NCBI GenBank assembly: GCA_031291875.1
Contig: JARLIE010000040.1
Coordinates: forward strand, 67,011-131,010
DNA: 64,000 nt
Reading direction: 5' to 3'
Source: Minisyncoccota bacterium
GTDB taxonomy: Bacteria > Patescibacteriota > Minisyncoccia > Phycocordibacterales > UBA2100
The notes beneath the pieces are model-generated. The model ran no database searches. It was not told the origin of the DNA and saw nothing but the letters and a program-made list of their open reading frames with translations. This document shows, one piece after another, positions 4,963-61,961 of the stretch (positions are counted from its first letter, which is position 1; every line of letters starts with the position of its first letter). Both the position numbers and the translations under genes were made by a program.

Positions 4963-6678
4963 ATGAAAAAAACAATTTTAAGACGCATTACTAAATCCTT
5001 GTCGATGCTCGCGGCCTCAGCGCTCGTGCTCGGCACGTTCGGGGCAGTTGCTCCGCTCGCGTTCGCCGCAACTGCCCCGACGACCGGCACGCCGACGAAC
5101 ATTACAACCAGTGACGCAACCCTCAACGGAACAAACGGCGATACGGCCGCTACTGCTTCCTCATTCTGGGTCTCAACGAGCACCTTCTCAACAGCAACTC
5201 CGACGTTGCCGGCAGGTGTCTACTCGACCGCGGATCTCGGGCCTCAAGCGGTAGGTGCCGCATACGCTGCCGCTCTTTCCTCGACAGTAGGACTTCCCAC
5301 GGTGACAGCTGACACGACCTACTACTACGCTGCCTGGACTGATGTTGGCGGCACCTGGTCGCCTGGCTCGATAGTGCAATTCACCACTGTTTCTTCGCCG
5401 ACGATCACGAGTGCCAATCCGGCTTCAGGGTCTACGGCGGGAGGCACCGCCATCACGATCACGGGCACCGAATTCAATAGCGGTGCGAGCGTGATGATCG
5501 GCGGAGCGGCAGCGACGAATGTCGTTGTTGCGAGCTCCACGTCGATTACGGCAACGACGCCAGCCGGTACAGCTGGTTCGCAAAACGTTGTCGTCACCAA
5601 CACCGATGGGGGAACCACTACCTCGACGGGTGCATTCACGTACATGACACCGGTAAACTCCTCAGTGACGACCACTCCGGCAAGTTCAGTGACCTCCACA
5701 GACGCAACTCTTAATGGGCTTATGGGAGCCTCTGCAGCGACCGGCCACTCATTTTGGGTTTCCACCAGCACATTCAGCACGGCTAGTGCGACAATTCCGG
5801 CCGGTGTCTACTCCACTGCCGATTTGGGTCCGATTGCGGCAGCAACCGCATTCTCAGCTGCGCTTAGCTCAGCGACGGGACTTCCTACAGTCACGGCAAG
5901 CACAACCTACTACTTCGCTGCCTGGGCTAATGTCGGTGGCATGTGGTCTCCGGGTGCAGTTCTAAGCTTCACGACCGCTAGCAGTGGCACAGCGCTCGCT
6001 CCGACTGTCTCTTCTATTGCTCCGACATCAGGAACAACAGCTGGCGGCACCTCGGTAACGATTACGGGCACCGGATTCACTGGTGCAACAGCAGTACACT
6101 TCGGTTCTTCCCTTGCCACAATTACGGGAACGACAAGCAGTACTTCGATAACAGCGACCTCTCCCGCAACAACGACCGCGGGTATCGTTGATGTGACGGT
6201 CACGACGCCGGCAGGCAGTAGTGCCACTAGCTCGGCCGACCACTACACCTACCAGATTGGCGGAACAGTAACTGGCGGCACCCAACCAGGTGGCACCCTC
6301 GCGGTGACGTCGATTACGCCGGTACAAACGAGCGGAACTGCTGACGGCACCTATGCGAATGGTTGGAGCTACATCTTCAACATCACGGTACCGACAAGCG
6401 AACCGAATCTCTCAATGGAGTTCTCGAACTGGCTTGACTCGGCATCCGACACAATTCCGGTTGCAGGCAATATGCAGATTTCTTCTGCGCAGGCCTCCAA
6501 CACGGCTCCGGTCACCATTAGCGCTGCGAACACGTTTTCGTCACCGCTCCACATGATCGGTAACCTCTCCACCTCAACACCGGGACTGCACGTGCAGGTT
6601 TTGGTACAGGTGAAGATTCCTCTGAACACGGTGAATGGTTCGTACACGACAAATTACGGCGTTCAGACACTTCAGTAA
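4963..6678 (+). CDS. secreted IPT/TIG-repeat surface protein with internal tandem duplication
   Basis: ATG at 4963 gives signal peptide MKKTILRRITKSLSMLAASALVLGTFGAVAPLAFA. Ser/Thr/Gly-rich. Two ~194-aa tandem units (TLNG...FTT module + IPT-like ITGTxF domain). The ORF-track start at 4678 has no signal peptide. Confidence 0.65.
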   Translation: MKKTILRRITKSLSMLAASALVLGTFGAVAPLAFAATAPTTGTPTNITTSDATLNGTNGDTAATASSFWVSTSTFSTATPTLPAGVYSTADLGPQAVGAAYAAALSSTVGLPTVTADTTYYYAAWTDVGGTWSPGSIVQFTTVSSPTITSANPASGSTAGGTAITITGTEFNSGASVMIGGAAATNVVVASSTSITATTPAGTAGSQNVVVTNTDGGTTTSTGAFTYMTPVNSSVTTTPASSVTSTDATLNGLMGASAATGHSFWVSTSTFSTASATIPAGVYSTADLGPIAAATAFSAALSSATGLPTVTASTTYYFAAWANVGGMWSPGAVLSFTTASSGTALAPTVSSIAPTSGTTAGGTSVTITGTGFTGATAVHFGSSLATITGTTSSTSITATSPATTTAGIVDVTVTTPAGSSATSSADHYTYQIGGTVTGGTQPGGTLAVTSITPVQTSGTADGTYANGWSYIFNITVPTSEPNLSMEFSNWLDSASDTIPVAGNMQISSAQASNTAPVTISAANTFSSPLHMIGNLSTSTPGLHVQVLVQVKIPLNTVNGSYTTNYGVQTLQ

Positions 6679-6697
6679 TATCGCTCATAGTAACTGT

Positions 6698-7243
6698 ATG
6701 ACTCACATCATTAGGAACTTACTGGTGAGCGCCACGATCGTCGTGGCGCTCACCGCGGGCTGCACAACGATCGCATCCGCTTCTGTTGTAACCGGCACCC
6801 TTACTTCAACTGGTGGTTCGACAAGCGGTGGTTCCATCGTCACCGGAACGATCACTGGTGGTACCGGGACGGGTTCTACCGCAACGGGCACGATAACCGG
6901 CACAACTAATCCTAGCGGCTCACTCTCCGGTACCGTAACTGGCGGATCCTCAGCGGGAGGTGGCGGAGGAGGTGGAAGTAGTGGCGGCGGGGGGAACGGC
7001 CCGATCGTCGGTTCCGGAGGCACCGTTGGAACGCCGGCAGGACAGGTACTCGGCGCGTCCACTGGACCACTCGGACTAGGCTCTTCGGCTTCTGGCTCAG
7101 CTGTTCCGGGGAGTCCCGATACGGGTGCAGGTGGGACCGCTCCATTGAATGACCTTGCGCTTGCTCTTTCTGGATTGGTTGCGCTCTCTAGCATTACGGC
7201 GCTCGTTCTCAAGAGAAAGAGCCCGGCAGTTCGATTCATCTAA
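6698..7243 (+). CDS. secreted Gly/Thr/Ser-rich protein with C-terminal sorting-signal-like tail
   Basis: ATG at 6698, N-terminal TM/signal, poly-Gly/Thr low complexity. C-terminus SPDTG + hydrophobic helix + KRKS resembles an LPXTG-type tripartite signal. Confidence 0.55.
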   Translation: MTHIIRNLLVSATIVVALTAGCTTIASASVVTGTLTSTGGSTSGGSIVTGTITGGTGTGSTATGTITGTTNPSGSLSGTVTGGSSAGGGGGGGSSGGGGNGPIVGSGGTVGTPAGQVLGASTGPLGLGSSASGSAVPGSPDTGAGGTAPLNDLALALSGLVALSSITALVLKRKSPAVRFI

Positions 7244-10811: not shown

Positions 10812-12176
10812 ATGAGCCCGCTCATTCTCTCGCGAATACAATTCGGCGATACGGCCGCATTCCATATTCTCTGGCCGGTTATGTCGATCGGCATCGCGCT
10901 CTATATGGTTGTCATGGAGTCCATGTGGCTCTATACCAAAGAAGAATCGTACTACCGTCAGTTGCGTTTTTGGACAAAAATCTTTGTGCTCACGTTCGCC
11001 ATTGGCACCGCGAGCGGCCTGCCACTTTCGCTCGAATTCGGAACCAATTGGTCGCAGTTCGCGCAGGCGGCCGGTGATTTTATGGGTAATATTCTTGGGT
11101 TTGAAACTACGATCGCTTTCGCGCTTGAATCGGCATTTCTCGCGATACTTATATTCGGCTGGAAGCGGGTTCATCCGCTCATGCACCTTTTTTCGACCTT
11201 TATGGTCTTTATCGGTGCCTCGATCTCAGCCTTTTGGATCATGGTCGCCAACTCCTGGATGCAGGTGCCCGAGGGAATAACCGTTCAAAACGGACTCATC
11301 GTCGTTACGAACTACTCGCAGGCTATTTTTAATCCCGACTCCGTTGTTTCGTTTATGCACATGATGGGCGCGTGCGTCGAATCCTCGCTCTTCCTTATCG
11401 GCGGCATCGCGGCATGGCAACTACTAACAACTGAAGCGGGTCCGGTTCGAGATTTCTTTCGACAAACACTCGTGTATTGTCTTGCGATCGCGCTCTTTGT
11501 CGCGCCGCTGCAGGTAGTGATTGGTGACATGAGCGGACTCGTCGTCGCTCAGTATCAGCCGGAGAAGTTGGCGGCGCTTGAATTACAGTGGGACACGAAC
11601 GCTCCGGGTGAGGGAGCGGCATGGGATGTGGTCGCATGGCCGAATTCGACCAACAATGGTAACGCATTCGCCGTTTCGATCCCCAATGGATTGAGTCTCC
11701 TCACGACGCATTCGATGGAGGGGACGGTGCAAGGATTGAACGATTTTCAGGCAAGCGATCGACCAAGCGAAATGGAAGCCGTCATTACGTTTTATGGTTT
11801 TCGCTTGATGATGGTGATTGGTTTTTTGCTTGTCGCGCTCGCGCTCTGGAGCATCGTTTTGTGGTGGAAAGGGGGATTGTCGTCCGAGCGTATTGCACGT
11901 CATCGTGCTTGGCTTAGATGCTGGGTCGCGTCGATTCCGCTTGGTTTTATCGCGACGGAAGCTGGTTGGATGGTGCGCGAGATCGGTAGGCAACCCTGGA
12001 CCGTATATCACTTGATGCGTACCGCAGACAGCGTCTCAATCGGACTCACCAGTTACGAGGTAGGCACGACGACGCTCGTTGTTACCGCCGCTTACCTGGT
12101 ATTTGCTGGCGTATTCATCTATCTAAGTTATCGAATCGTTCGATCCGGTCCGGATCTCGTATCGCCGCTGCCATGA
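10812..12176 (+). CDS. cydA: cytochrome bd ubiquinol oxidase subunit I
   Basis: N-terminus LSRIQFGDTAAFHILWPVMSIGIALYM and Q-loop GWMVREIGRQPW match CydA. Confidence 0.85.
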   Translation: MSPLILSRIQFGDTAAFHILWPVMSIGIALYMVVMESMWLYTKEESYYRQLRFWTKIFVLTFAIGTASGLPLSLEFGTNWSQFAQAAGDFMGNILGFETTIAFALESAFLAILIFGWKRVHPLMHLFSTFMVFIGASISAFWIMVANSWMQVPEGITVQNGLIVVTNYSQAIFNPDSVVSFMHMMGACVESSLFLIGGIAAWQLLTTEAGPVRDFFRQTLVYCLAIALFVAPLQVVIGDMSGLVVAQYQPEKLAALELQWDTNAPGEGAAWDVVAWPNSTNNGNAFAVSIPNGLSLLTTHSMEGTVQGLNDFQASDRPSEMEAVITFYGFRLMMVIGFLLVALALWSIVLWWKGGLSSERIARHRAWLRCWVASIPLGFIATEAGWMVREIGRQPWTVYHLMRTADSVSIGLTSYEVGTTTLVVTAAYLVFAGVFIYLSYRIVRSGPDLVSPLP

Positions 12177-15678: not shown

Positions 15679-16587
15679 ATGCGTCGCTCGACGATCGTTC
15701 TCTTGAGTATTTTTGTGCTCGCGCTTGCAGCAGCGACGTTCCTCTATGTCCGAAGTGCAACCATAGCCGTGCTCGATCCGGCTGGTCCCGTCGCCCTCGC
15801 CGAGAAAAACATCATCATTACGGCGACGTTTTTGTGTGCGCTGGTCGTTGTGCCGGTTTTCTTTTTGTTGTTTTTCTTTGCATGGAAGTATCGGGCCGAC
15901 AGTCCGCAGGCACAGCAATCCCACAAGCCGGATTGGGACCATGACAGCATTCTCGCGGAAGTGATTTGGTGGCTTGTTCCGGCCGTAATTATCGCTATCC
16001 TCGGCGTCATCGCGTGGAATAGTTCGCACGCGCTCGACCCGTATCGACCGCTCGAATCCGACGTTGCCACAATACCGATCGACGTCGTCGCGCTCGACTG
16101 GAAATGGCTCTTTATCTATCCGCAACAGGGAATCGCGAGCGTAAATCTTGTCGAATTTCCCGCAGGAACGCCGGTGCATTTCTATCTGACGGCAGACGCA
16201 CCGATGAACACGTTTTGGATACCGCAGCTTGCGGGGCAGGTTATGGTTATGCCCGGCATGACAACGCAGCTTAACCTGGCAGCGAGCAAAACGGGGGATT
16301 TCAACGGCTTCTCCGGAAACATCAGCGGAAAAGGATTTTCGGGCATGGCGTTTACCGCTCGTGCGGTAGATCAGCAAACGTTCAATACTTGGATCGCTTC
16401 AATAAAAGCTTCTTCGACACCGCTTACGCAAGAAGCCTACATAATGTTGGCGGCGCCAAGTGAATATAATCCGGTCGCGTATTACGACCTCGCGGAACCA
16501 AATCTCTTTGGTGCGATAGAATCCACCTATATGAATCCCGGATCGGCGATGCCGCAGGTGTCGCAAGGTATGACCGTGACACCATGA
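15679..16587 (+). CDS. cyoA: cytochrome o ubiquinol oxidase subunit II
   Basis: Two N-terminal TM helices plus a cupredoxin-like domain. FWIPQLAGQVMVMPGMTTQLNL...GFSG matches CyoA (quinol oxidase, no CuA ligands). Confidence 0.8.
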   Translation: MRRSTIVLLSIFVLALAAATFLYVRSATIAVLDPAGPVALAEKNIIITATFLCALVVVPVFFLLFFFAWKYRADSPQAQQSHKPDWDHDSILAEVIWWLVPAVIIAILGVIAWNSSHALDPYRPLESDVATIPIDVVALDWKWLFIYPQQGIASVNLVEFPAGTPVHFYLTADAPMNTFWIPQLAGQVMVMPGMTTQLNLAASKTGDFNGFSGNISGKGFSGMAFTARAVDQQTFNTWIASIKASSTPLTQEAYIMLAAPSEYNPVAYYDLAEPNLFGAIESTYMNPGSAMPQVSQGMTVTP

Positions 16588-18563
16588 ACTGGCAAACCTT
16601 GATCTTCGGGAATCTCTCGTGGTCGGTACTGCCCGAAAACGCGATCGCATGGTTCGGTGCGCTTACCGTTATCGCCGGTGTGCTCGCAGTGGTCGGCGTC
16701 GTTACGTATCTGGGCCGCTGGCAGTGGCTTTGGGACGAATGGTTCACATCGCTCGATCCGAAGAAAATCGGCGTTATGTACATCGTTGTCGCTCTCGTTA
16801 TGCTGGTGCGCGGCGGCTCCGACGCGCTCCTCATGCGCGCGCAACAGGCAACCTCGGTCGGCGATTCGTACGGCATTTTGACCTCGACGCACTTTCAAGA
16901 AATTTTCTCGGCGCATGGCTCGATCATGATCTTTTTCCTCGCGATGGGGTTTATGTTCGGACTTATCAACTTGATTGTCCCGCTGCAGATCGGATCGCGG
17001 GACGTCGCGTTCCCGTTTTTGAATTCGCTTAGCTTTTGGCTCTTCTTTGCCGGCGCGGCCCTGATCAACTGCTCACTCATTTTTGGCGATTTTTCTACGG
17101 CAGGTTGGCTCGCGTACCCGCCGCTTTCTGAATTGCGATATTCGCCGACTAGCGGCGTCGATTATTGGATCTGGTCGCTACAGATTGGCGGCCTAGGATC
17201 GCTGCTTTCGGGCGTGAACTTTTTTGCGACCATCGTGAAAATGCGTACGAAGGGGATGAACTGGATGCGTTTGCCGATGTTCAGCTGGACCGTGCTCGGC
17301 TCCATGACCCTCGTTATTTTCGCGTTCCCGATTCTCACCGTCACGCTCGCGCTGCTCTACCTCGATCGCACCGCCGGCATGCACTTTTTCACAGCAGAGC
17401 TCGGCGGCAATATGATGATGTACGTAAACTTGATCTGGGCGTGGGGACATCCGGAGGTGTATATTCTGATTCTTCCGGCCTTTGGCGTCTTTTCGGAAGT
17501 GGTGCCGGTTTTTTCGGGGAAGAAACTCGCCGGGTATACCTCGATGGTATTCTCTGTGTGGGCGATCGTGGTGCTCTCATTTATCGTATGGCTGCACCAC
17601 TTTTTCACGATGGGCGCGGGAGCGGACGTCAATGCGTTCTTCGGTATTATGACGGCCGTCATCGCCGTTCCCACCGGTGTCAAAATTTTCAACTGGCTTT
17701 TCACGATGTACCGCGGTCGCATTCGATTCGAGAGTCCGATGCTGTGGTTTATGGGATTCGTCGTGCTCTTTACGCTCGGCGGGGTCGCGGGTGTCGTGAT
17801 GGCGGAGCCACCGGCCGACTATCAGCTGCACAACTCTCTCTTTCTCGTCGCGCACTTCCACACGATGATCGTCTCCGGCGTGCTGTTCGGGTACTTTGCA
17901 GGGCTCACGTTCTGGTTTCCAAAAATATTCGGATTCAAAATGAACGAAAAGTGGGGGATTCGTGCGTTTTGGTTCTGGCTGATCGGCTTTATTCTCGCGT
18001 TCGGGCCGCTCTACTTGCTTGGCTTTGAGGGTGCGACCAGACGGCTCGACCATTATTCTTCTTCGCTCGGATGGCAGCCCCTTTTTATCGTCGCCGGCAT
18101 CGGTGCGATTTCTATAGCCATCGGTTTTTCATGCCAGGTGGCGCAGCTTGTCGCGACGTTTCGCGACTACAAGCGTAATCGCGTCGGCAACGATCCGTGG
18201 GACGGTCGCACGCTCGAGTGGTCGGTCGCTTCTCCAGCGCCCTCGTACAACTTCGCCGCCCTCCCGATTGTGCACTCGCGCGATGAGTTCTGGGAAGAAA
18301 AACACGGCGCGAGCACCCAGGAGCAAAAATTTGAGGATTTTTCTATGCCAAAAAATACCGGTGCCGCGGTTATTGTCAGTAGTTTTGTGTTCTTGCTGGG
18401 GTTTGGCGCCGTATGGCATATCTGGTGGCTCGTTATCGCCGCGCTGCTTGGTGCAACGATCGCGGTGCTCGTCCATGTTTTCAACGAAGACTCCGAATAC
18501 GCAGTGAGCGGCGCGCAGCTTGCACACCGCGAAGCGGGACTGCAGTATCCGACCAGCCTATGA
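16584..18563 (+). CDS. cyoB: cytochrome o ubiquinol oxidase subunit I (heme-copper oxidase)
   Basis: 659 aa. WAWGHPEVYILILPAFGVFSEVV, HHFFTMG and other heme-copper subunit I signatures. Confidence 0.9.
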   Translation: MNWQTLIFGNLSWSVLPENAIAWFGALTVIAGVLAVVGVVTYLGRWQWLWDEWFTSLDPKKIGVMYIVVALVMLVRGGSDALLMRAQQATSVGDSYGILTSTHFQEIFSAHGSIMIFFLAMGFMFGLINLIVPLQIGSRDVAFPFLNSLSFWLFFAGAALINCSLIFGDFSTAGWLAYPPLSELRYSPTSGVDYWIWSLQIGGLGSLLSGVNFFATIVKMRTKGMNWMRLPMFSWTVLGSMTLVIFAFPILTVTLALLYLDRTAGMHFFTAELGGNMMMYVNLIWAWGHPEVYILILPAFGVFSEVVPVFSGKKLAGYTSMVFSVWAIVVLSFIVWLHHFFTMGAGADVNAFFGIMTAVIAVPTGVKIFNWLFTMYRGRIRFESPMLWFMGFVVLFTLGGVAGVVMAEPPADYQLHNSLFLVAHFHTMIVSGVLFGYFAGLTFWFPKIFGFKMNEKWGIRAFWFWLIGFILAFGPLYLLGFEGATRRLDHYSSSLGWQPLFIVAGIGAISIAIGFSCQVAQLVATFRDYKRNRVGNDPWDGRTLEWSVASPAPSYNFAALPIVHSRDEFWEEKHGASTQEQKFEDFSMPKNTGAAVIVSSFVFLLGFGAVWHIWWLVIAALLGATIAVLVHVFNEDSEYAVSGAQLAHREAGLQYPTSL

Positions 18564-19545: not shown

Positions 19546-20412
19546 ATGATCAAAGCCTACTATCGTCTCTCGAAGCCTGGCATCGTATACGGGAATTTGC
19601 TCACGACGATCGCCGCATTTTTGTACGCTTCGCGTTGGGGACTGGTTTCATGGGATGCGTGGATCGTGTTTCTTGCAACCGTCTTTGGACTCGGGCTTGT
19701 TATTGCCTCCGCCTGCGTGTTCAATAATTTTATCGATCGGGACATTGATCGAAAAATGAAACGCACGAAGAATCGCGCACTCGCAACCGGCGAGCTATCC
19801 AACGAGAACGCGCTTCTGTTTGCCACAATCATCGGTCTTATCGGCTTAACTCTCCTCATCGCCTTCGTGAACCTGCTGAGTGCGTTCATCGCGTTCGTCG
19901 GTTTCGCGGTCTATGTCTTCGCCTACACGCTTCTGAAACGCACCACGGCGTGGGCGACGGAAATTGGAAGTATCTCCGGAGCCGTTCCGATTCTTGTCGG
20001 TTACACGGCCGTGACGAATCGTTTCGATCTGGTCGCACTCATGCTCTTCGCGATCATGATTTTCTGGCAGATGCCGCATTTTTTTGCGATCGCACTCTTT
20101 CGTTTCGACGACTATGCTGCGGCGAATATTCCGACGCTGCCGCTCAAAAAAGGCGCACGTGTTACTAATATTCGCGCGCTCATCTATATCGTGCTCTTTG
20201 CAATTGGCGTGCTCGCGCTCACGGTACTTGGTTACGCCGGGTACTGGTATCTCGTGGTAGTGGAGATCGCGGCAGTCGTATGGTTTTGGCGAGGCACGCA
20301 AGGATTCGCTGCGGTGCATACTGAAGCCTGGGCCCGTAAATTTTTCTTCACCTCACTTGTCGTGCTTCTGGTTTTTGCAGCGATGCTTTCAATCGCGAAT
20401 CTCGTATTCTAG
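19546..20412 (+). CDS. cyoE: protoheme IX farnesyltransferase (heme O synthase)
   Basis: UbiA-family motifs NNFIDRDIDRKMKRTKNRALATGEL. 288 aa polytopic. Confidence 0.85.
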   Translation: MIKAYYRLSKPGIVYGNLLTTIAAFLYASRWGLVSWDAWIVFLATVFGLGLVIASACVFNNFIDRDIDRKMKRTKNRALATGELSNENALLFATIIGLIGLTLLIAFVNLLSAFIAFVGFAVYVFAYTLLKRTTAWATEIGSISGAVPILVGYTAVTNRFDLVALMLFAIMIFWQMPHFFAIALFRFDDYAAANIPTLPLKKGARVTNIRALIYIVLFAIGVLALTVLGYAGYWYLVVVEIAAVVWFWRGTQGFAAVHTEAWARKFFFTSLVVLLVFAAMLSIANLVF

Positions 20413-29092: not shown

Positions 29093-29164
29093 GCCCTTGT
29101 AGTTCAATGGATAGAACACCGGACTTCTAAGCCGGTTATGTTGGTTCGATTCCAACCGAGGGCA
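29093..29164 (+). tRNA. tRNA-Arg (anticodon TCT)
   Basis: Acceptor GCCCTTG/CGAGGGC, D-arm GTTC-aatggata-GAAC, anticodon loop cTTCTaa, T-arm GTTGG-ttcgatt-CCAAC. No encoded CCA. One A-G mismatch at the base of the anticodon stem. Confidence 0.75.
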
Positions 29165-29199
29165 ATGACGAAGTACTTGACCTCGGTTGGAATCGAACC
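29143..29199. repeat. perfect 19-bp inverted repeat: tRNA-Arg 3' end and its reverse complement 19 nt downstream
   Basis: GGTTCGATTCCAACCGAGG at 29143-29161 and CCTCGGTTGGAATCGAACC at 29181-29199. Confidence 0.7.
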
Positions 29200-29282
29200 A
29201 GGAGGGGGTCGGGGAACCTGCTGGTTCCCTGTGGAGGAAGGCTTGGGAAAACCGTGGGTTTCCCAGGAGTTCCATTCCAACT

Positions 29283-29372
29283 CAGGAGCGATGTTTCGCC
29301 AGCAGGCGAAACTGGCGAGCAGGGGTCGCGGAAATCTCCTCGCTGGCGACAAAATTATCCGTGACCATGACG
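29283..29372 (+). repeat. conserved structured intergenic element, copy 1
   Basis: GAGCGATGTTTCGCC-agca-GGCGAAACTGGCGAG...GGGTCGCGGAAAT...TATCCGTGACCA. Shares ~85 nt with copy 2 and the stem arms with copy 3. Confidence 0.6.
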
Positions 29373-29426
29373 GTGTGTCCGAGTAACTATTCGATTCTAA
29401 GTCCACATCTGCTATATTGATCCCGC

Positions 29427-29501
29427 GCGCGCTTAGCTCAGTGGTAGAGCAGCGCTTTTACACAGCGAAGGTCAGGGGTTCGAATCCCTTAGCGCGCACC
29501 A
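29427..29501 (+). tRNA. tRNA-Val (anticodon TAC)
   Basis: Acceptor GCGCGCT/AGCGCGC, D-arm GCTC-agtggta-GAGC, anticodon loop ttTACac, T-loop TTCGAAT, encoded CCA. Confidence 0.85.
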
Positions 29502-29546
29502 ATGACACAAGGACGTGCCCTGCGGCAAGTCCTTGTGCTTTGGGGC

Positions 29547-29636
29547 GGGCCGGAGCGATCTTTCGCCAGCAGGCGAAACTAGCGAGGCCGGGTCGCGGAA
29601 ATTTGCATCTGGATGCAAAGTATCCGTGACCACAAA
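29547..29636 (+). repeat. conserved structured intergenic element, copy 2
   Basis: GAGCGATCTTTCGCC-agca-GGCGAAACTAGCGAG...GGGTCGCGGAAAT...TATCCGTGACCA. Confidence 0.6.
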
Positions 29637-29717
29637 ACAAACGAGACCGATGCATGCCATCGGTCGACTAGGGAAAATTTGCCCAATCAGCCCCCTGATG
29701 CTATAGTGCCGCGACTT

Positions 29718-30191
29718 ATGGCATTCAAGATTTCACCGGTCGACACGGAGGCCCGCAGCAGGCTCGATATTCGAGCCGGCGACACTGTCCGTGTACACCA
29801 GAAAATCGAAGAAAAGGGGAAGTTTCGTATCCAGATCTTCGAGGGCTTGGTGCTTGCCCGCAAGCACGGCCGCGAAGCCGGGGGCACCTTTACTGTTCGC
29901 CGCGTCCTATCGGGCGTCGGTGTTGAGAAGATTTTCCCGCTCTACTCTCCAATGATCGACAAGATCGAGATCGTGAAGCGCTCCCGCGTACGCCGCGCGA
30001 AGCTCTACTTCATCCGCGAGAAGGTTGCCCGCGAAGCTCGCCGCCAGTTGCGCCGCACGCGCATGATGACCAGCGACGAAATGCAGGCGGAATTTGCCAA
30101 CGAAAGCGAGGCACAAAAGGAAAAGATCGTCGAAGAGATGACTGCTCCGACCAACGACGCGGTCGAAACGACTGGCGAGAAATCCGAATAG
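29718..30191 (+). CDS. rplS: 50S ribosomal protein L19
   Basis: [51 protein letters not shown]...[44 protein letters not shown], with an acidic C-terminal extension. ATG 10 nt after TGCTATAGT. Confidence 0.85.
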
Positions 30192-30227: not shown

Positions 30228-30314
30228 GCGCAGGTGGCGAAATTGGTAGACGTACTACCTTGAGGTGGTAGCGCCCTCACGGGCATGGGAGTTCGAGTCT
30301 CCCCCTGCGCACCA
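30228..30314 (+). tRNA. tRNA-Leu (anticodon GAG)
   Basis: Acceptor GCGCAGG/CCTGCGC, long variable arm, anticodon loop tTGAGgt, T-arm GGGAG-ttcgagt-CTCCC, encoded CCA. Confidence 0.85.
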
Positions 30315-30321
30315 AACTGCC

Positions 30322-30355
30322 AAAGCCGGAGACACACTCCGGCTTTGTGCTTTCC
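30322..30355 (+). terminator. rho-independent terminator after tRNA-Leu
   Basis: AAAGCCGGA-gacacac-TCCGGCTTT followed by gtgcTTTcc. Confidence 0.5.
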
Positions 30356-51710: not shown

Positions 51711-52862
51711 ATGGCTCGCGTAAAGATAAGCGAATATCGAGCCAAAAAGATTTTACTTGGCGATTCGTACAAGGGTATTTTGGTTCGCACTGAAGAAAAG
51801 CAAAAGATGCCCAAGGGCGGGACCTGGGTGGCCAAAGTCGACCAGGGCGTCAAAAAGCGCTTTAAACAAGGACTTGTTGCCGTCGGTGTAACGCCGGCGC
51901 AGGCGGCGAAGAAGTTTGCGCTCTGGCAAAAGGAAGGCTTCTCGCAGTTCCTGCTCGAACCGCTCGTCCCGCACAAATCGGAAGAAGAACAGTACCTTTC
52001 GCTCGACCGTGTTCGCGAGGGGATTCGCGTGCTGCATGCAGGCGAGGGCGGAATCGACATCGAAACACATCCGGAGAAAGTCGGCACGTATACCATTGCG
52101 AACGATGAAGATCTCGCAATAGTTTCGAGTGCGACAAATATCCCGCAAACGTTTTTACGACACGTTCTGGAAGTATTCGATAAAAACTTTTTCGCCTTTC
52201 TTGAAATCAATCCGCTGGTCATCCAAGGCGGTAAGGCGCACTTGCTCGATGCCGCGTGCCTCGTTGACAGTGCTGGAGAATTTTTCGTTACGTCATGGGG
52301 GCAAGACGATATCGTGAAGTCGAGAGCCGCGCATGAGTCGGAAGCTCGCGTTGAAGAATTACAAAACACGACGCCGGCCTCACTCAAGCTCTCCGTCATC
52401 AACCCGAACGGTTCGCTGTTTTTCCTGCTCTCGGGTGGCGGCGGCTCGATCGTCATTGCCGACGAAGCGGAGCTTGAAGGCGCAGGGAAGCTCATCGGCA
52501 ATTACGGCGAATACAGCGGCGGTCCGACGCGGCAAGAGACCTATTTATATGCAAAAGAAGTGATTGCGCTCATGCTCAAGTCGAACGCGAAGAAGAAGGC
52601 ACTGGTGATCGCAGGGGGCGTGGCGAACTTTACCGACGTTCAAAAAACATTCGCCGGCATCATCGACGCGCTTTCTGAGTTTGCGCCCAAGCTACGCGAA
52701 CAAAAGGTGAAAGTATTCGTCCGTCGAGGAGGTCCGAATGAGAAAGCGGGACTCGAACTCATGTGTGCATTTTTGGACCGCGAAAAGCTGTTCGGCTCGA
52801 TTCACGGATCAGATGATGTGATTACAAGTGCGGTTGCCGATGCTATCAAATTTGCTGTATGA
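51711..52862 (+). CDS. aclB: ATP-citrate lyase, ATP-grasp (beta) subunit
   Basis: Collinear with the N-terminus of eukaryotic ACLY/AclB: ISEYRAKKIL, FLLEPLVPH, FLEINPLV, ASLKLSVINPNGSLFFLLSGGGGSIV, GNYGEYSGGPTRQETYLYAK, VFVRRGGPN. Confidence 0.85.
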   Translation: MARVKISEYRAKKILLGDSYKGILVRTEEKQKMPKGGTWVAKVDQGVKKRFKQGLVAVGVTPAQAAKKFALWQKEGFSQFLLEPLVPHKSEEEQYLSLDRVREGIRVLHAGEGGIDIETHPEKVGTYTIANDEDLAIVSSATNIPQTFLRHVLEVFDKNFFAFLEINPLVIQGGKAHLLDAACLVDSAGEFFVTSWGQDDIVKSRAAHESEARVEELQNTTPASLKLSVINPNGSLFFLLSGGGGSIVIADEAELEGAGKLIGNYGEYSGGPTRQETYLYAKEVIALMLKSNAKKKALVIAGGVANFTDVQKTFAGIIDALSEFAPKLREQKVKVFVRRGGPNEKAGLELMCAFLDREKLFGSIHGSDDVITSAVADAIKFAV

Positions 52863-54643
52863 ACTTTATCGACGCAACACGAAAGGGGAAAGAGGGCATT
52901 CTTGTTTTGGGGAACCATCCGCAGATCGTGCAGTCGATCCTCGATTTTGATTTCGTGTGCGGCAAGCGCGAACCGTCGGTCGTGGCAGTGATCGGAGGAG
53001 CAAGGCGAGCGCAGAAATTTTTTTTCGGCCCATCCGAACTATTGATCCCGTGTTTCGCCGACGTTTCGAAAGTTCCTCAAGGCCTGCGCGGCAAGATCTT
53101 CTGGATGCTGAACGTGCAGTCTGGACGACGTTCATTCGACTCGACGGTTTCATTTTTTGAAACGTTCCCTCATGCGCTCGGTGGACATCTCTTCGCCGAA
53201 AACATTCCCGAGCGGCATTCCACCGAACTCATTAGGCGTTTTGGCGCTACAAAGCTGCTCGCCGGCCCCTCCGGCGTCGGCTTTCTTGTGCCCGGCTATC
53301 TGAAATTGGGGGCGATCGGTGGAACGGACGCAGCGATGTTAGAAGCATCCAAGCTGGCGACTGAGGGAACGATTGCGGTTGTTTCCACCTCCGGCGGCAT
53401 GACCAACGAGCTTATACGCGCGGTCGCGAACGCGGGGAAGCGGCTTTCGTTCGCTATTTCGATTGGTGGAGATCGTTTCCCGGTAACCTCGCTTTCCGAG
53501 GTGCTCCTGCTCGCGCAAAGCGATTCCAAAACGAAAGCCATCGTGTATTTTGGCGAACTCGGCGGCGTCGATGAATACGAGATCGTGGAGCTGATCGAAA
53601 AGAAAAAGCTCACGAAGCCGGTGTTGGCGTATGTTGCTGGGATCATCGACGAGGCATTCGACGAACATATGCAGTTTGGACACGCCAAAGCGCTCGTCGC
53701 CCGGCCGAGCGAAAGCGCGCGCGCAAAACGCGACGCCCTGCGCAAGGCGGGAGCGCTCGCCCCAGAAACCTTTCCGGAATTCCTCGCACGCATGAAAAAA
53801 CTCCCAGGCACGACCGTTCGGGACATGGCGCTTCCCATGGACGCGCTGCAAAAACGCCGTGCGAGCGTCCTCTCCACGCGTCAGGTCGTCGATCTCGACG
53901 AAACTCCGATATTCGTCAAAGCCAAAAAACTCGTTTCGCAAAAAGAAGGATTCGCGACGAAGATTTTTGAGTCACTACTTGATCGAAAGCTCCGCTCTCC
54001 AAGTACTGCTGGCTTTGCCGAGGCGGTATTCGGTCTTTTGATAGACCATGGCGGGGAAGTCTCGGGCGCGGTCAATACTATGATTTCGGCGCGCGCGGGC
54101 AGAGACCTTGTTTCATCGCTCGCGAGCGGTCTTCTGACGATCGGGCCCCGTTTTGGCGGCGCAGTGAACGCTGCTGCGGGGCAATGGCTCGATGGCGTCT
54201 GTGGCGCCGAATCTGCTGCCGAGTTCGTCGAAAAAAGAACGAAGGGCGGGAATCTTCTCGCCGGCATCGGGCACCGCAAATACAGGGTCGGCATTCCCGA
54301 CCCGCGTGTCGCGGCACTCGCGGATTTTGCGACGCTCTTGAAGCAACACCCTTATTACGATTTTGCCCGTGAGGTAGAGAAAGTGACAACGGCAAAGAAC
54401 GGCTCCCTTATTTTGAATGTCGACGGCGTCATGGCGGCGCTCGCGCTCGATATCTTTGCGCAGTGCGAGCAACTCTCTCAAGATGAATTGCGTGAACTCG
54501 TAACGACGGAGTTCTTCAATGCACTTTTCGTGATTCCGCGAACCGTCGGATTTATTGCGCATTTTATGGAGCAAAAGAAGAACGACGAAGGATTGTTCCG
54601 CTTGCCGGAGGAATTGCTTTTCGTGCGAAGGAAAAAGAAGTAG
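52859..54643 (+). CDS. aclA: ATP-citrate lyase, CoA-binding/citrate-synthase-like (alpha) subunit
   Basis: LDFDFVCGKREPSVVAV, phosphohistidine loop QFGHAKA, IDHGGEVSGAVNTMISARAGRDLVSSLASGLLTIGPRFGGA, GIGHRKYRVGIPDPRV, C-terminal GFIAHFMEQKK...LFRLPEE. All collinear with ACLY/AclA. Confidence 0.85.
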   Translation: MNFIDATRKGKEGILVLGNHPQIVQSILDFDFVCGKREPSVVAVIGGARRAQKFFFGPSELLIPCFADVSKVPQGLRGKIFWMLNVQSGRRSFDSTVSFFETFPHALGGHLFAENIPERHSTELIRRFGATKLLAGPSGVGFLVPGYLKLGAIGGTDAAMLEASKLATEGTIAVVSTSGGMTNELIRAVANAGKRLSFAISIGGDRFPVTSLSEVLLLAQSDSKTKAIVYFGELGGVDEYEIVELIEKKKLTKPVLAYVAGIIDEAFDEHMQFGHAKALVARPSESARAKRDALRKAGALAPETFPEFLARMKKLPGTTVRDMALPMDALQKRRASVLSTRQVVDLDETPIFVKAKKLVSQKEGFATKIFESLLDRKLRSPSTAGFAEAVFGLLIDHGGEVSGAVNTMISARAGRDLVSSLASGLLTIGPRFGGAVNAAAGQWLDGVCGAESAAEFVEKRTKGGNLLAGIGHRKYRVGIPDPRVAALADFATLLKQHPYYDFAREVEKVTTAKNGSLILNVDGVMAALALDIFAQCEQLSQDELRELVTTEFFNALFVIPRTVGFIAHFMEQKKNDEGLFRLPEELLFVRRKKK

Positions 54644-61076: not shown

Positions 61077-61140
61077 AAGCTTCACCGTAGAGCTTGACAG
61101 CATCATAGTAATGATGCATTATCTTGTACAGATTGTGCAT

Positions 61141-61236
61141 TGACTCATGTTTCGCCCTAGCGCAGAGCTGCTTCTATACGGCAGGTGTGCGCTACGGCGA
61201 AACGGAATACTCCGCGAGCCCGCTGGCAGCTACCCT
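61141..61236 (+). repeat. conserved structured intergenic element, copy 3 (with insertion in the first hairpin loop)
   Basis: TCATGTTTCGCC-[40-nt insert]-GGCGAAACGG...CGCGAGC...CGCTGGC. Same stem arms and downstream GCGAGC/CGCTGGC blocks as copies 1 and 2. Lies in the 5' leader of the 61269 gene. Confidence 0.5.
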
Positions 61237-61268
61237 TCGGGAGTGGCGCTTACTAGGGATGGAAACCT

Positions 61269-61961
61269 ATGAGCAACCTCACTACGCTTTCACAAGCCAA
61301 GAGGCTCCTAACTCTGGTTGATGAGGCTGATCTTGATTCAGGCGCGTTACAGACGCTCTTCAGCGGCTACCTTTCCTCGCTCTTCAAATGCGTGAAAGAA
61401 AATAATTTGCCGACTCTAACCGTGTTCCGCGAGTTTATGAATGCTCGCCGCCAGCTAATTCCCACGTGGATGCTGCTTGCAAGCGACGGTTTCGAAAGTC
61501 TCGAAACGAGATTTGTCGGTAACCTCGTTGCTAAAACGAAGCAGGCGGGTTGGCAGATGAATCATCTTCTGTCGCAGGCAGATGTCGAGGCTTGTGCGAA
61601 ACTTCCTTTCGAACCGTTTCGCGGCCAGCTCGTGAAGATCTCGGCGAGCCAGCTTGGTGTTGATCCGGACCTATTCGGTACCCACGGTTTGACCAATGAA
61701 AACGCAAAATTCTATCTGGCTCGAAAGGCCAGGGAAAGAGGATTGCGGCCGGTGAGTCTGTCGGAAACGTTGCAGCTTTGTTTGCAGTTGTCCGAAGGTG
61801 AGTGTGTGACGTTGTTTTCAACGCTCTTGATTGGAGAGCGCTCGAATAAGATCGAGCTCATTCTCATTAAGGTGGATCGCAATCCGATTGCTCCTCCGTA
61901 TCTCGCGCTCGCGCGCTACGCAGTGGCGTACAAAGACGAGTACGTATTCGCTCGAATTTGA
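61269..61961 (+). CDS. hypothetical protein
   Basis: 230-aa ORF with RBS AGGGATGG. Own promoter-like TTGACA-17-CATTAT upstream and a strong terminator downstream. No recognisable domain. Confidence 0.5.
   Translation: MSNLTTLSQAKRLLTLVDEADLDSGALQTLFSGYLSSLFKCVKENNLPTLTVFREFMNARRQLIPTWMLLASDGFESLETRFVGNLVAKTKQAGWQMNHLLSQADVEACAKLPFEPFRGQLVKISASQLGVDPDLFGTHGLTNENAKFYLARKARERGLRPVSLSETLQLCLQLSEGECVTLFSTLLIGERSNKIELILIKVDRNPIAPPYLALARYAVAYKDEYVFARI

Follow-up and report, generated by a model that had tools for sequence, protein, structure and literature searches.

A large uncatalogued family of small structured elements trails tRNA genes in Patescibacteria and has two copies beside tRNA-Val and rplS

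The 64-kb stretch of Patescibacteria DNA analysed here (the window, meaning the whole stretch) has on its + strand the locus order tRNA-Arg, copy A, tRNA-Val, copy B and rplS, where A and B are two copies of a short structured intergenic element. By their sequence and predicted fold, both belong to a large, uncatalogued family of approximately 85-nt two-hairpin elements of the Candidate Phyla Radiation (CPR). The defining trait of the family, missed by the initial annotation of this DNA, is as read from sequence that its members follow tRNA genes and are flanked by copies of the tRNA 3′ end in sense and antisense orientation, an insertion signature. The explanation preferred here, for which the chances are judged to be about even, is that both A and B are copies of a mobile element of the Patescibacteria (Paceibacteria) that is small and encodes no protein.

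That A and B share sequence blocks had been noticed before, and this holds: they have a 51-nt block in common at 90% identity, with GGGTCGCGGAAAT and TATCCGTGACCA exact, and a 20-nt hairpin motif occurs window-wide only in these two copies (0.03 expected). A covariance model (R1), made from an alignment of 84 distinct homologues, found just two sites in the window with filters off, at 29534–29642 (73.4 bits) and 29268–29377 (57.4 bits), corresponding to the following cores.

29285–29366, + strand: core of copy A (GGAGCGAUG ... GUGACC), with hairpin P2a at 29294–29311 and P3 at 29323–29366; model R1, 57.4 bits.
29552–29631, + strand: core of copy B, with P2a at 29561–29578, P3 at 29591–29599/29623–29631 and P3b at 29603–29620; model R1, 73.4 bits.

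Homologues were retrieved with one strict search pattern, built from blocks conserved in A, B and the copy of a syntenic contig (locus L004, whose L19 is 77% identical), which was used to scan one-genome-per-species bacteria, groundwater and soil metagenomes, and viral contigs. The bacterial genomes gave 93 stretches, nearly all from Patescibacteria, with host groups including Kaiser-, Taylor-, Moran-, Yanofsky-, Vogel- and Yonath-bacteria and others, and the metagenomes gave at least 120, while no copy was found with the pattern in the viral contigs. At least 199 distinct copies at 214 loci were thereby obtained from Patescibacteria genomes and groundwater and soil metagenomes, both numbers being lower bounds among the matches listed. 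When run on the first 97 loci, model R1 gave 121 hits, with up to four per 8 kb. The initial annotation had envisaged a model search of related genomes, and further copies with compensatory covariation are indeed present there.

With Rfam 15 at gathering thresholds, only five tRNAs were found in the window, and at E ≤ 10 nothing between 29160 and 29730 overlapped either core. The cores had no match to L19_leader, to riboswitches, or to the hepatitis delta virus (HDV)-like, hammerhead, twister, pistol, hatchet and hairpin ribozymes, in line with the earlier statement that no known riboswitch, leader or small-RNA (sRNA) family could be assigned. No description of an element of this kind was found in literature searches; the paper that comes nearest deals with group I introns in Patescibacteria tRNAs, which are unrelated to it (PMC13011429). 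By their defining features, the family belongs to none of the groups considered, these being Rfam families, leaders, miniature inverted-repeat transposable elements (MITEs), palindrome-associated transposable elements (PATEs), integron attC sites and integrase islands, and it bears a partial likeness to several of them.

The conserved core is about 82–87 nt in length and folds as two irregular hairpins on the strand that shares the sense of the tRNA. P2 is a 3-bp GNC:GNC helix, followed by an internal loop (GGAGCGAUG/CCGCGAG, with potential tandem G·A pairs) and then the hairpin P2a; P3 has a stem (GGUCGCGGA/UCYGUGACC), a bulged A and the hairpin P3b. The closing helix of this three-way junction, P1, is built from the flanks and lies outside the core. 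The fold was imposed on the 84 distinct sequences, with shuffles and slid alignments as controls. Standard pairs made up 87.8% of cells (71.7% when shuffled), and the covariation score was 0.441 compared with 0.160 for shuffles, none of 500 shuffles reaching the observed value and slid controls remaining at or below 0.137. At the middle of P2, 37 sequences have a G-C pair, 25 have C-G and 17 have A-U, and one P3 pair is G-C in 56, A-U in 19 and C-G in seven. Within P3, G65·U102 is a G·U pair in 83 of the 84 sequences and G67:Y100 is G·U in 48 and G-C in 34; the folded strand is therefore the + strand, that is, the sense of the tRNAs. The search pattern had placed no constraint on the covarying stems or on P1. 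In the L004 copy one hairpin is fully compensated (UUUCGCC/GGCGAAA to UCGCGCA/UGCGCGA) and an inner hairpin is of unrelated sequence, and the copies following tRNA-Val in L004 and L001 show compensatory changes relative to copy B of the window, which itself has a minimum free energy (MFE) z-score of −5.5 on the + strand. The suggestion in the initial annotation that structure constrains the element is thus supported by strong covariation and by + strand G·U pairs. Large insertions can be tolerated, with approximately 100 nt in the P3b tip of L015 and approximately 52 nt between P2 and P3 in L001.

Among the 199 listed distinct copies, 126 (63%) lie 27–130 nt downstream of a co-oriented tRNA or transfer-messenger RNA (tmRNA) gene, a placement expected for 2.7% of positions, and none is in antisense orientation to such a gene. 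Seventeen tRNA identities are represented in addition to tmRNA, and the distances from tRNA to core cluster at about 49–51, 67 and 85 nt. At approximately 20 loci the element is located between topA and a relA/spoT-like gene, in the topA 3′ end. For this tRNA-less group, RNase P RNA was considered as the target and rejected, as there is no Rfam RNase P and the repeat is the in-frame topA 3′ end with its stop codon. The idea that every tRNA has a companion module was also ruled out, tRNA-Ser, tRNA-Leu and tRNA-His of the window having none.

The initial annotation implied a cis-regulatory role, with the elements acting as a riboswitch or ribosomal-protein leader of rplS, tRNA-Val or the open reading frame (ORF) at 61269. 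In keeping with this, B lies upstream of rplS, and a proposed third copy, 'C', lies upstream of an ORF. The TGCTATAnT box that had been reported 3′ of each copy is present in both cases, in the following surroundings.

29410–29418, + strand: TGCTATATT, an extended −10-like box 5′ of tRNA-Val; it is 3′ of copy A and outside the element (sequence).
29679–29707, + strand: rplS promoter-like site TTGCCC-17-TGcTATAGT (sequence), in which the box TGCTATAGT occupies 29699–29707, 3′ of copy B.
29718–30191, + strand: rplS (L19), ATG at 29718, a neighbour and not a regulatory target (Pfam PF01245; 100% match to L19 of 'Ca. Pacebacteria', with relatives from Kaiserbacteria/Paceibacterota).

Both boxes are thus promoter-like sequences lying 3′ of the elements. 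In the three contigs closest in rplS (80–89% L19 identity) another gene lies 50–90 nt upstream, at 60 nt in those with 88–89% identity, and there is no element, and in L001 and L002 a TGCTA(T/C)AGTGCCGC box is kept directly 5′ of rplS with no element at that place. The genes that follow the element at the at least 214 loci are housekeeping genes unrelated to one another, and all Rfam leaders, that of L19 included, were unmatched. Because of the position of the boxes, the element-free rplS relatives and the unrelated downstream genes, the element is not considered to be an rplS leader, and a leader function of any kind, being contradicted by the comparative data, is most improbable. In L004, one element is present between tRNA-Val and rplS.

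The elements have a regular arrangement, this being the target 3′ end, a hairpin (P0), an antisense target segment, a junction, the core, and the target 3′ end again. Three classes of target site were distinguished, namely the T loop at 55/56, the very 3′ end of tRNA or tmRNA, and the last topA codons, and in each the target gene stays intact because its displaced 3′ end is present twice. The downstream repeat is a copy of the target 3′ end which starts at the last base of the core, 50 of the 77 detectable repeats beginning no more than 2 nt from the core end. At T-loop sites it runs from C56 to N73 plus 1–2 nt (19–20 nt, perfect in L025, L067 and L075); at tRNA-end sites it is short (4–15 nt) or spans the terminator; and at topA sites it is 58–72 nt long, including the stop codon (70/72 identical in L069). 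Directly 5′ of the core is a 6-nt junction (AAAGNC or GUGAGAC-like), preceded by an approximately 10-nt antisense copy of the repeat start, and it is the pairing of this antisense copy with the sense copy 3′ of the core that forms P1. Further 5′ there is usually the P0 hairpin with a CUGC or CUUC loop, and T-loop modules often have an extra antisense copy of the acceptor 3′ strand. The window locus contains the following parts of this arrangement.

29093–29164, + strand: tRNA-Arg(TCT), target gene of the upstream insertions (ARAGORN and Rfam).
29165–29170, + strand: ATGACG, first copy of a short direct repeat, directly 3′ of tRNA-Arg; the hexamer recurs after core A (sequence).
29177–29200, + strand: antisense copy of the tRNA-Arg 3′ end (T arm and acceptor 3′ strand); 24 nt, 96% complementary to 29142–29165.
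29201–29268, + strand: core of A0, a second related module (GGGGUCGGGGAACC...GGGUUUCCCAGG); a near-identical core is found in metagenome loci L127 and L159.
29269–29286, + strand: sense copy of the tRNA-Arg T arm and acceptor 3′ strand, closing A0; 83% identical to 29144–29161 and complementary to 29181–29198.
29367–29372, + strand: ATGACG, second copy of the direct repeat, beginning at the 3′ end of core A and fitting the family rule (sequence).
29427–29501, + strand: tRNA-Val(TAC), target gene of copy B (ARAGORN and Rfam).
29506–29537, + strand: connector hairpin P0 with a CUGC loop; 14-nt arms, 93% complementary.
29538–29551, + strand: antisense segment and junction (CUUUGGGGCGGGCC), pairing with the tRNA-Val 3′ end/CCA (fold and model alignment).

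The 262-nt stretch from tRNA-Arg to tRNA-Val thus consists of the degenerate module A0 plus copy A. A0 shows the complete sense/antisense/sense pattern for tRNA-Arg (29142–29165, 29177–29200 and 29269–29286), and is the source of the sole Rfam signal near the cores at E ≤ 10, a sub-threshold Actinomyces-1 match. It looks like a member of a sister family, with a different core and a shared insertion architecture, to judge by its sequence. In L127 and L159, both metagenome contigs, the A0-type core is flanked by an approximately 45-nt direct repeat containing a stop codon. The ATGAC pentamer, previously reported at both flanks of tRNA-Val, occurs there directly 3′ of core A (29367) and of tRNA-Val (29502), and also directly 3′ of tRNA-Arg (29165); in family terms, ATGACG is on this reading of the sequence the short direct repeat flanking the tRNA-Arg insertions. 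The closing helix P1 is not well formed in copy A. In copy B, GCC of the junction pairs with 29588–29590 as P2 (fold and model alignment), a hairpin is also present 3′ of the element, before the rplS promoter-like site, and the downstream repeat has decayed. P0-like hairpins with a CUGC-type loop are found at the equivalent position in L004, L001 and many other loci.

Two other origins for the module were ruled out. The antisense strand complements the tRNA 3′ strand across wobble pairs in the two informative cases (U·G in tRNA-Arg of the window and G3·U70 in a tRNA-Ala), and it is therefore not a duplicated tRNA 5′ strand; as regards a retro-copy of mature tRNA, the downstream repeats have no untemplated CCA. 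Empty frameworks, that is, the hairpin with no core, were not found by simple patterns in about 0.7 Mb of loci. In L038 and L043, 5′ of the main element, the same framework (antisense acceptor strand, CUGC-loop hairpin, antisense T-arm, AAAGGC and sense tRNA 3′ end) encloses other, unrelated cores, and elements are nested in one another. On the reverse strand of L009, 3′ of tRNA-Leu (approximately 6560–6860 in reverse-complement coordinates), an antisense segment and AAAGCC are followed by a core-like start GGAGAUAUGUCCCGC..., continuing with UGAGAAGCGA...GCUUCGCAAG (also in L019) into what looks like a tRNA-Tyr 3′ half; this variant may represent an interrupted tRNA gene or else a related element of larger size.

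When folded, the T-loop module forms a tRNA-like minihelix, the core standing where the T loop would be and P0 taking over from the D and anticodon arms. This raises the alternative of a host-useful sRNA on tRNA transcription units, with a functional core and with flanks forming a tRNA-like minihelix, from which RNase P, RNase Z and perhaps the CCA-adding enzyme would excise and stabilise an RNA of approximately 170 nt, the whole having spread by local duplication. The MFE folds of the T-loop class give exactly the acceptor/T-stem minihelix, with P0 in place of the two arms, the antisense acceptor strand truly complements the tRNA 3′ strand, the transcribed strand is fixed by G·U pairs, and compensatory changes keep the structure in 16 syntenic topA-relA copies and likewise among the tRNA-Val copies of the window, L004 and L001. 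However, a good minihelix is absent or degenerate in many copies (the tRNA-end and topA classes, and A and B of the window), many tRNA-end copies have a U-rich 3′ side in their tRNA-to-core hairpin, and the topA sites duplicate a 58–72-nt coding 3′ end for which a tRNA-like scaffold has no use. The distribution is also patchy, with tens to hundreds of matches among thousands of Patescibacteria species and from zero to four copies per locus, and perfect tandem arrays exist. Such an sRNA is on balance considered unlikely, yet it is kept as the main rival to a mobile element because the topA-relA copies hold their fold while their flanks diverge.

Gain and loss of the element can be seen between the window and L004. 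Neither A0 nor A is present in L004, whose tRNA-Arg and tRNA-Val are separated by 2 nt, and the converse applies after tRNA-Leu, as follows.

30228–30347, + strand: tRNA-Leu(GAG) with a plain terminator, an empty site in the window; the orthologous tRNA-Leu(GAG) of L004 is followed by an element (92 bits).

Tandem arrays were found with 3.5 units of 134 nt (100%), 3.3 units of 139 nt (99%), three units of 137 nt and two units of 166 nt, the last with a unit that includes an 18-nt tRNA fragment. In L094, L100 and L116 the array starts directly after the tRNA 3′ end and its last unit is partial or decayed, and in one metagenome-assembled genome there are identical copies at contig ends. Mosaic cores, identical even in their variable stems, lie within unrelated flanks and P0 hairpins in L013/L058, L020/L026 and L010/L042. 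Their identity extends from GGAGCG to GUGAC(C), and the one recurrent internal difference is the middle nucleotide of P2, which changes together with its flank partner.

The arrays, whose unit boundary lies exactly at the P3/P1 junction, could also point to a new class of self-cleaving or self-ligating ribozyme that would process the tRNA 3′ trailer or excise itself at that junction (GUGAC|C). The compact three-way junction, the near-invariant nucleotides of its internal loops, the unit length of the arrays and the location in tRNA trailers would all suit a ribozyme, and phage tRNA-trailer ribozymes offer a precedent. However, no Rfam ribozyme model matched at E ≤ 10, the putative cleavage site would be within a continuous stacked helix with no unpaired nucleotides, and the core is 27–130 nt from the tRNA end and therefore cannot define that end. 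A ribozyme of this kind is accordingly rated as improbable.

Neighbouring ORFs were clustered all-against-all for 93 loci and then for 214. No recombinase, transposase or reverse-transcriptase gene was recurrent within 2.5–3.5 kb of the at least 214 loci, and the clusters comprised housekeeping genes only (TopA, RelA/SpoT, IF-2, Mur ligase, L19, RbfA and others). In the window, a Pfam search of 40 of the 66 larger ORFs, 29 of which had a match, likewise identified no recombinase, transposase or reverse transcriptase. ORFs of approximately 200–250 amino acids with an N-terminal helix-turn-helix-like region, a LAGLIDADG-like motif and no Pfam hit occur near eight loci (L077, L080, L106, L115, L127, L159, L169 and L199), often just 5′ of the tRNA, though their positions are inconsistent. 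Locus L058 has a DUF488 gene within the approximately 800 nt between tRNA-Ser and the module, and a decayed copy of the tRNA 3′ end directly precedes the module; on sequence grounds, the space between repeats may carry or trap small cargo genes.

Presence and absence at orthologous sites, arrays, identical cores in unrelated flanks and the lack of a protein gene together indicate a non-autonomous mobile structured element. Direct repeats from the T loop to the tRNA 3′ end, with tmRNA also used, are the classical signature of an integrase-type island, and the element could be conceived as a relic or cis-mobilisable mini-version of one, its core being an att-site arm bound as DNA by a tyrosine recombinase encoded elsewhere; the DUF488 gene of L058 could be taken in its favour. 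Integrase islands insert at the T loop or 3′ end of tRNA and tmRNA genes and restore the gene with a 3′-end copy, and the element is like them in its targets and in the direct repeat to the gene 3′ end that restores the gene. Unlike them, it has no integrase within 2.5–3.5 kb at any of the at least 214 loci, the whole insert is just 130–190 nt, and one core serves 17 tRNA identities; double-stranded att sites have no antisense target copy, and the invariant and frequent G·U pairs and covarying stems argue for a folded single strand. An island relic is accordingly considered improbable.

As regards a mechanism for the mobile element, it would move by way of a circular single-stranded intermediate, either RNA or single-stranded DNA (ssDNA), and would involve co-transcription with the tRNA and a trans-acting enzyme. 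The array units, at 134–166 nt, give the size of such a circle, which would run a - P0 - a′ - junction - core and which a single strand exchange at the 5′ edge of 'a' would link to the target. The same order would arise if the circle were copied by rolling-circle synthesis starting at the target 3′ end. Both routes would account for arrays in phase at the tRNA, and rolling-circle copying would additionally account for an out-of-phase last unit. In its most specific form, the proposal is that of an integrated, viroid-sized (approximately 135–165-nt), protein-free single-stranded circle, RNA or ssDNA, homing by its own antisense 'guide' to the T loop or 3′ end of tRNA, tmRNA and some mRNA genes, where the spare 3′ end keeps the target functional and where the core is a new catalytic RNA or a handle for a host enzyme. 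This form is put forward tentatively, being rather doubtful as a whole; if true, the Candidate Phyla Radiation would have an RNA-guided mobile element of a new class.

Several points weigh against a mobile element that moves in this manner. The intermediate rests wholly on DNA architecture. The weakest point is that the antisense segment exactly matches at least 17 different tRNAs, so that retargeting would need either guide drift among similar T arms with mosaic recombination, or templated copying; drift with recombination between co-resident copies is conceivable because T arms differ by one to three bases per 10-nt window. In the array of L116, the antisense segment pairs with the tRNA-proximal sequence only and not with the sequence after each core. 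The search pattern demanded GGAGCGAT, GCGAG and GGTCGCG.AAA, and the invariance of these blocks is for that reason partly by construction. Finally, the 16 copies at one topA-relA site have 21 of 43 pairs altered on both sides and yet 89.6% of cells paired, while the identity of their flanking repeats varies between 70/72 and about 65%. The pattern has the look of selection acting on resident copies, as for a host-useful RNA; such selection fits either an RNA of that kind or a need to fold the antisense segment away from the tRNA, and the same pattern could come from gene conversion by active copies.

Like the PATEs and repetitive extragenic palindromes (REPs) of the IS200/IS605 group, which are moved by HUH/Y1 transposases with no target duplication and a fixed 4–5-nt target, the element is protein-less, with two imperfect hairpins near its ends, a strand-specific fold and an orientation which follows co-directional genes. 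One nucleotide of its flank also covaries with an internal one (col17/col57), in the manner of a guide and cleavage-site pair, and the irregularity of its hairpins (bulge, G·U pairs and strand asymmetry) is PATE-like, but fits RNA equally. Unlike PATEs, it has long direct repeats and an antisense copy, its left flanks vary (..GGTT, ..GGGA, ..GCA), and no TnpA is found near the loci. Integron attC sites conserve structure but not sequence and have R and L boxes, and the CTX-phage attP(+) hairpin uses dif and XerCD; in both, the stem of the folded strand imitates the target duplex, and one strand exchange followed by replication gives a sense-antisense-sense order, with tandem arrays possible. 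The element is similar in that its single strand folds so that a stem imitates the target duplex. However, its core is strongly conserved in sequence, its borders lack R boxes and it targets tRNA 3′ ends, and the largest neighbour ORF clusters inspected included no IntI or integrase-like cluster.

Small structured repeats such as the Correia, ERIC, Rickettsia palindromic and mitochondrial double-hairpin elements have fixed terminal repeats and short fixed duplications. The element shares with them a size of approximately 100–150 nt, multiple copies, hairpin formation and tolerated insertion in or next to genes. It differs from MITEs in that its inverted segments (the P1 strands) are locus-specific target copies and its duplications range from about 6 to 72 nt, and no small structured repeat is known to copy the target 3′ end in both orientations or to trail tRNAs systematically. 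HDV-like 'theta' ribozymes occur in phage tRNA trailers, and sRNAs are derived from the 3′ external transcribed spacers of tRNAs; like these, the element is a structured RNA directly 3′ of tRNA genes and co-oriented with them, but it matches no ribozyme model, is separated from the tRNA by a hairpin, is flanked by repeats, and is present in multiple copies and in arrays.

The Patescibacteria have tiny genomes with very few recognised mobile elements or regulatory RNAs. What is described here looks like an abundant, uncatalogued and highly structured element with a precise relation to tRNA genes. Should it move by pairing with its target, it would amount to a new guide-bearing insertion system of very small size, with a natural means of harmless insertion into essential genes; if a host RNA, it would be among the most widespread unknown structured RNAs of this radiation. 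In practical terms, assemblies break at tRNA loci, pseudo-tRNA fragments may confuse annotation, and the covariance model is ready for use in CPR genome annotation.

The third copy proposed in the initial annotation, with conserved hairpin arms around a loop insertion, fared less well.

61148–61218, + strand: 'copy C', at best a relic or derivative of the P2 half, located in the 5′ region of ORF 61269–61961; exact collinear blocks, no model hit.

Its blocks TGTTTCGCC...GGCGAAAC...GCGAG are exact and collinear (0 expected from shuffles), and it is therefore related to the P2 half of the element. However, GGAGCGA and the entire P3 hairpin are absent, there are insertions of 39 nt and 8 nt, it adjoins no tRNA, its own fold is a different three-hairpin structure, and model R1 did not report the region (E ≤ 10, filters off). 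Judged by sequence, copy C would be at best a half-element relic or derivative and not a full member. It had been offered as evidence for the fold; its stem is exactly that of A and B, though this stem varies freely among genomes, which suggests a decayed paralogue and gives no support for the fold. At 61094–61268, a TTGACA-type promoter-like site is followed by a strongly folding leader of approximately 130 nt (MFE z = −3.9) that includes the half-element relic. ORF 61269–61961 itself is hypothetical, with no Pfam hit, and is flanked by metG and a TatD-like gene.

Two further features of the window were recorded. A TGCTATAGTGCCGCGAC box, conserved in the window, L001, L002 and L004, ends approximately 10 nt before the rplS ATG, with no Shine-Dalgarno sequence visible, which suggests that the rplS mRNA may be nearly leaderless. 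Patescibacteria are generally described as having neither respiration nor a tricarboxylic acid (TCA) cycle, and the genes at 10812–12173, 15679–18560, 19546–20409 and 51711–54640 of this contig are unusual for such a lineage. Their products are cytochrome bd subunit I, subunit I of a haem-copper oxidase together with a COX_ARM subunit, a prenyltransferase of the UbiA family, and both of the ATP-citrate-lyase-like subunits.

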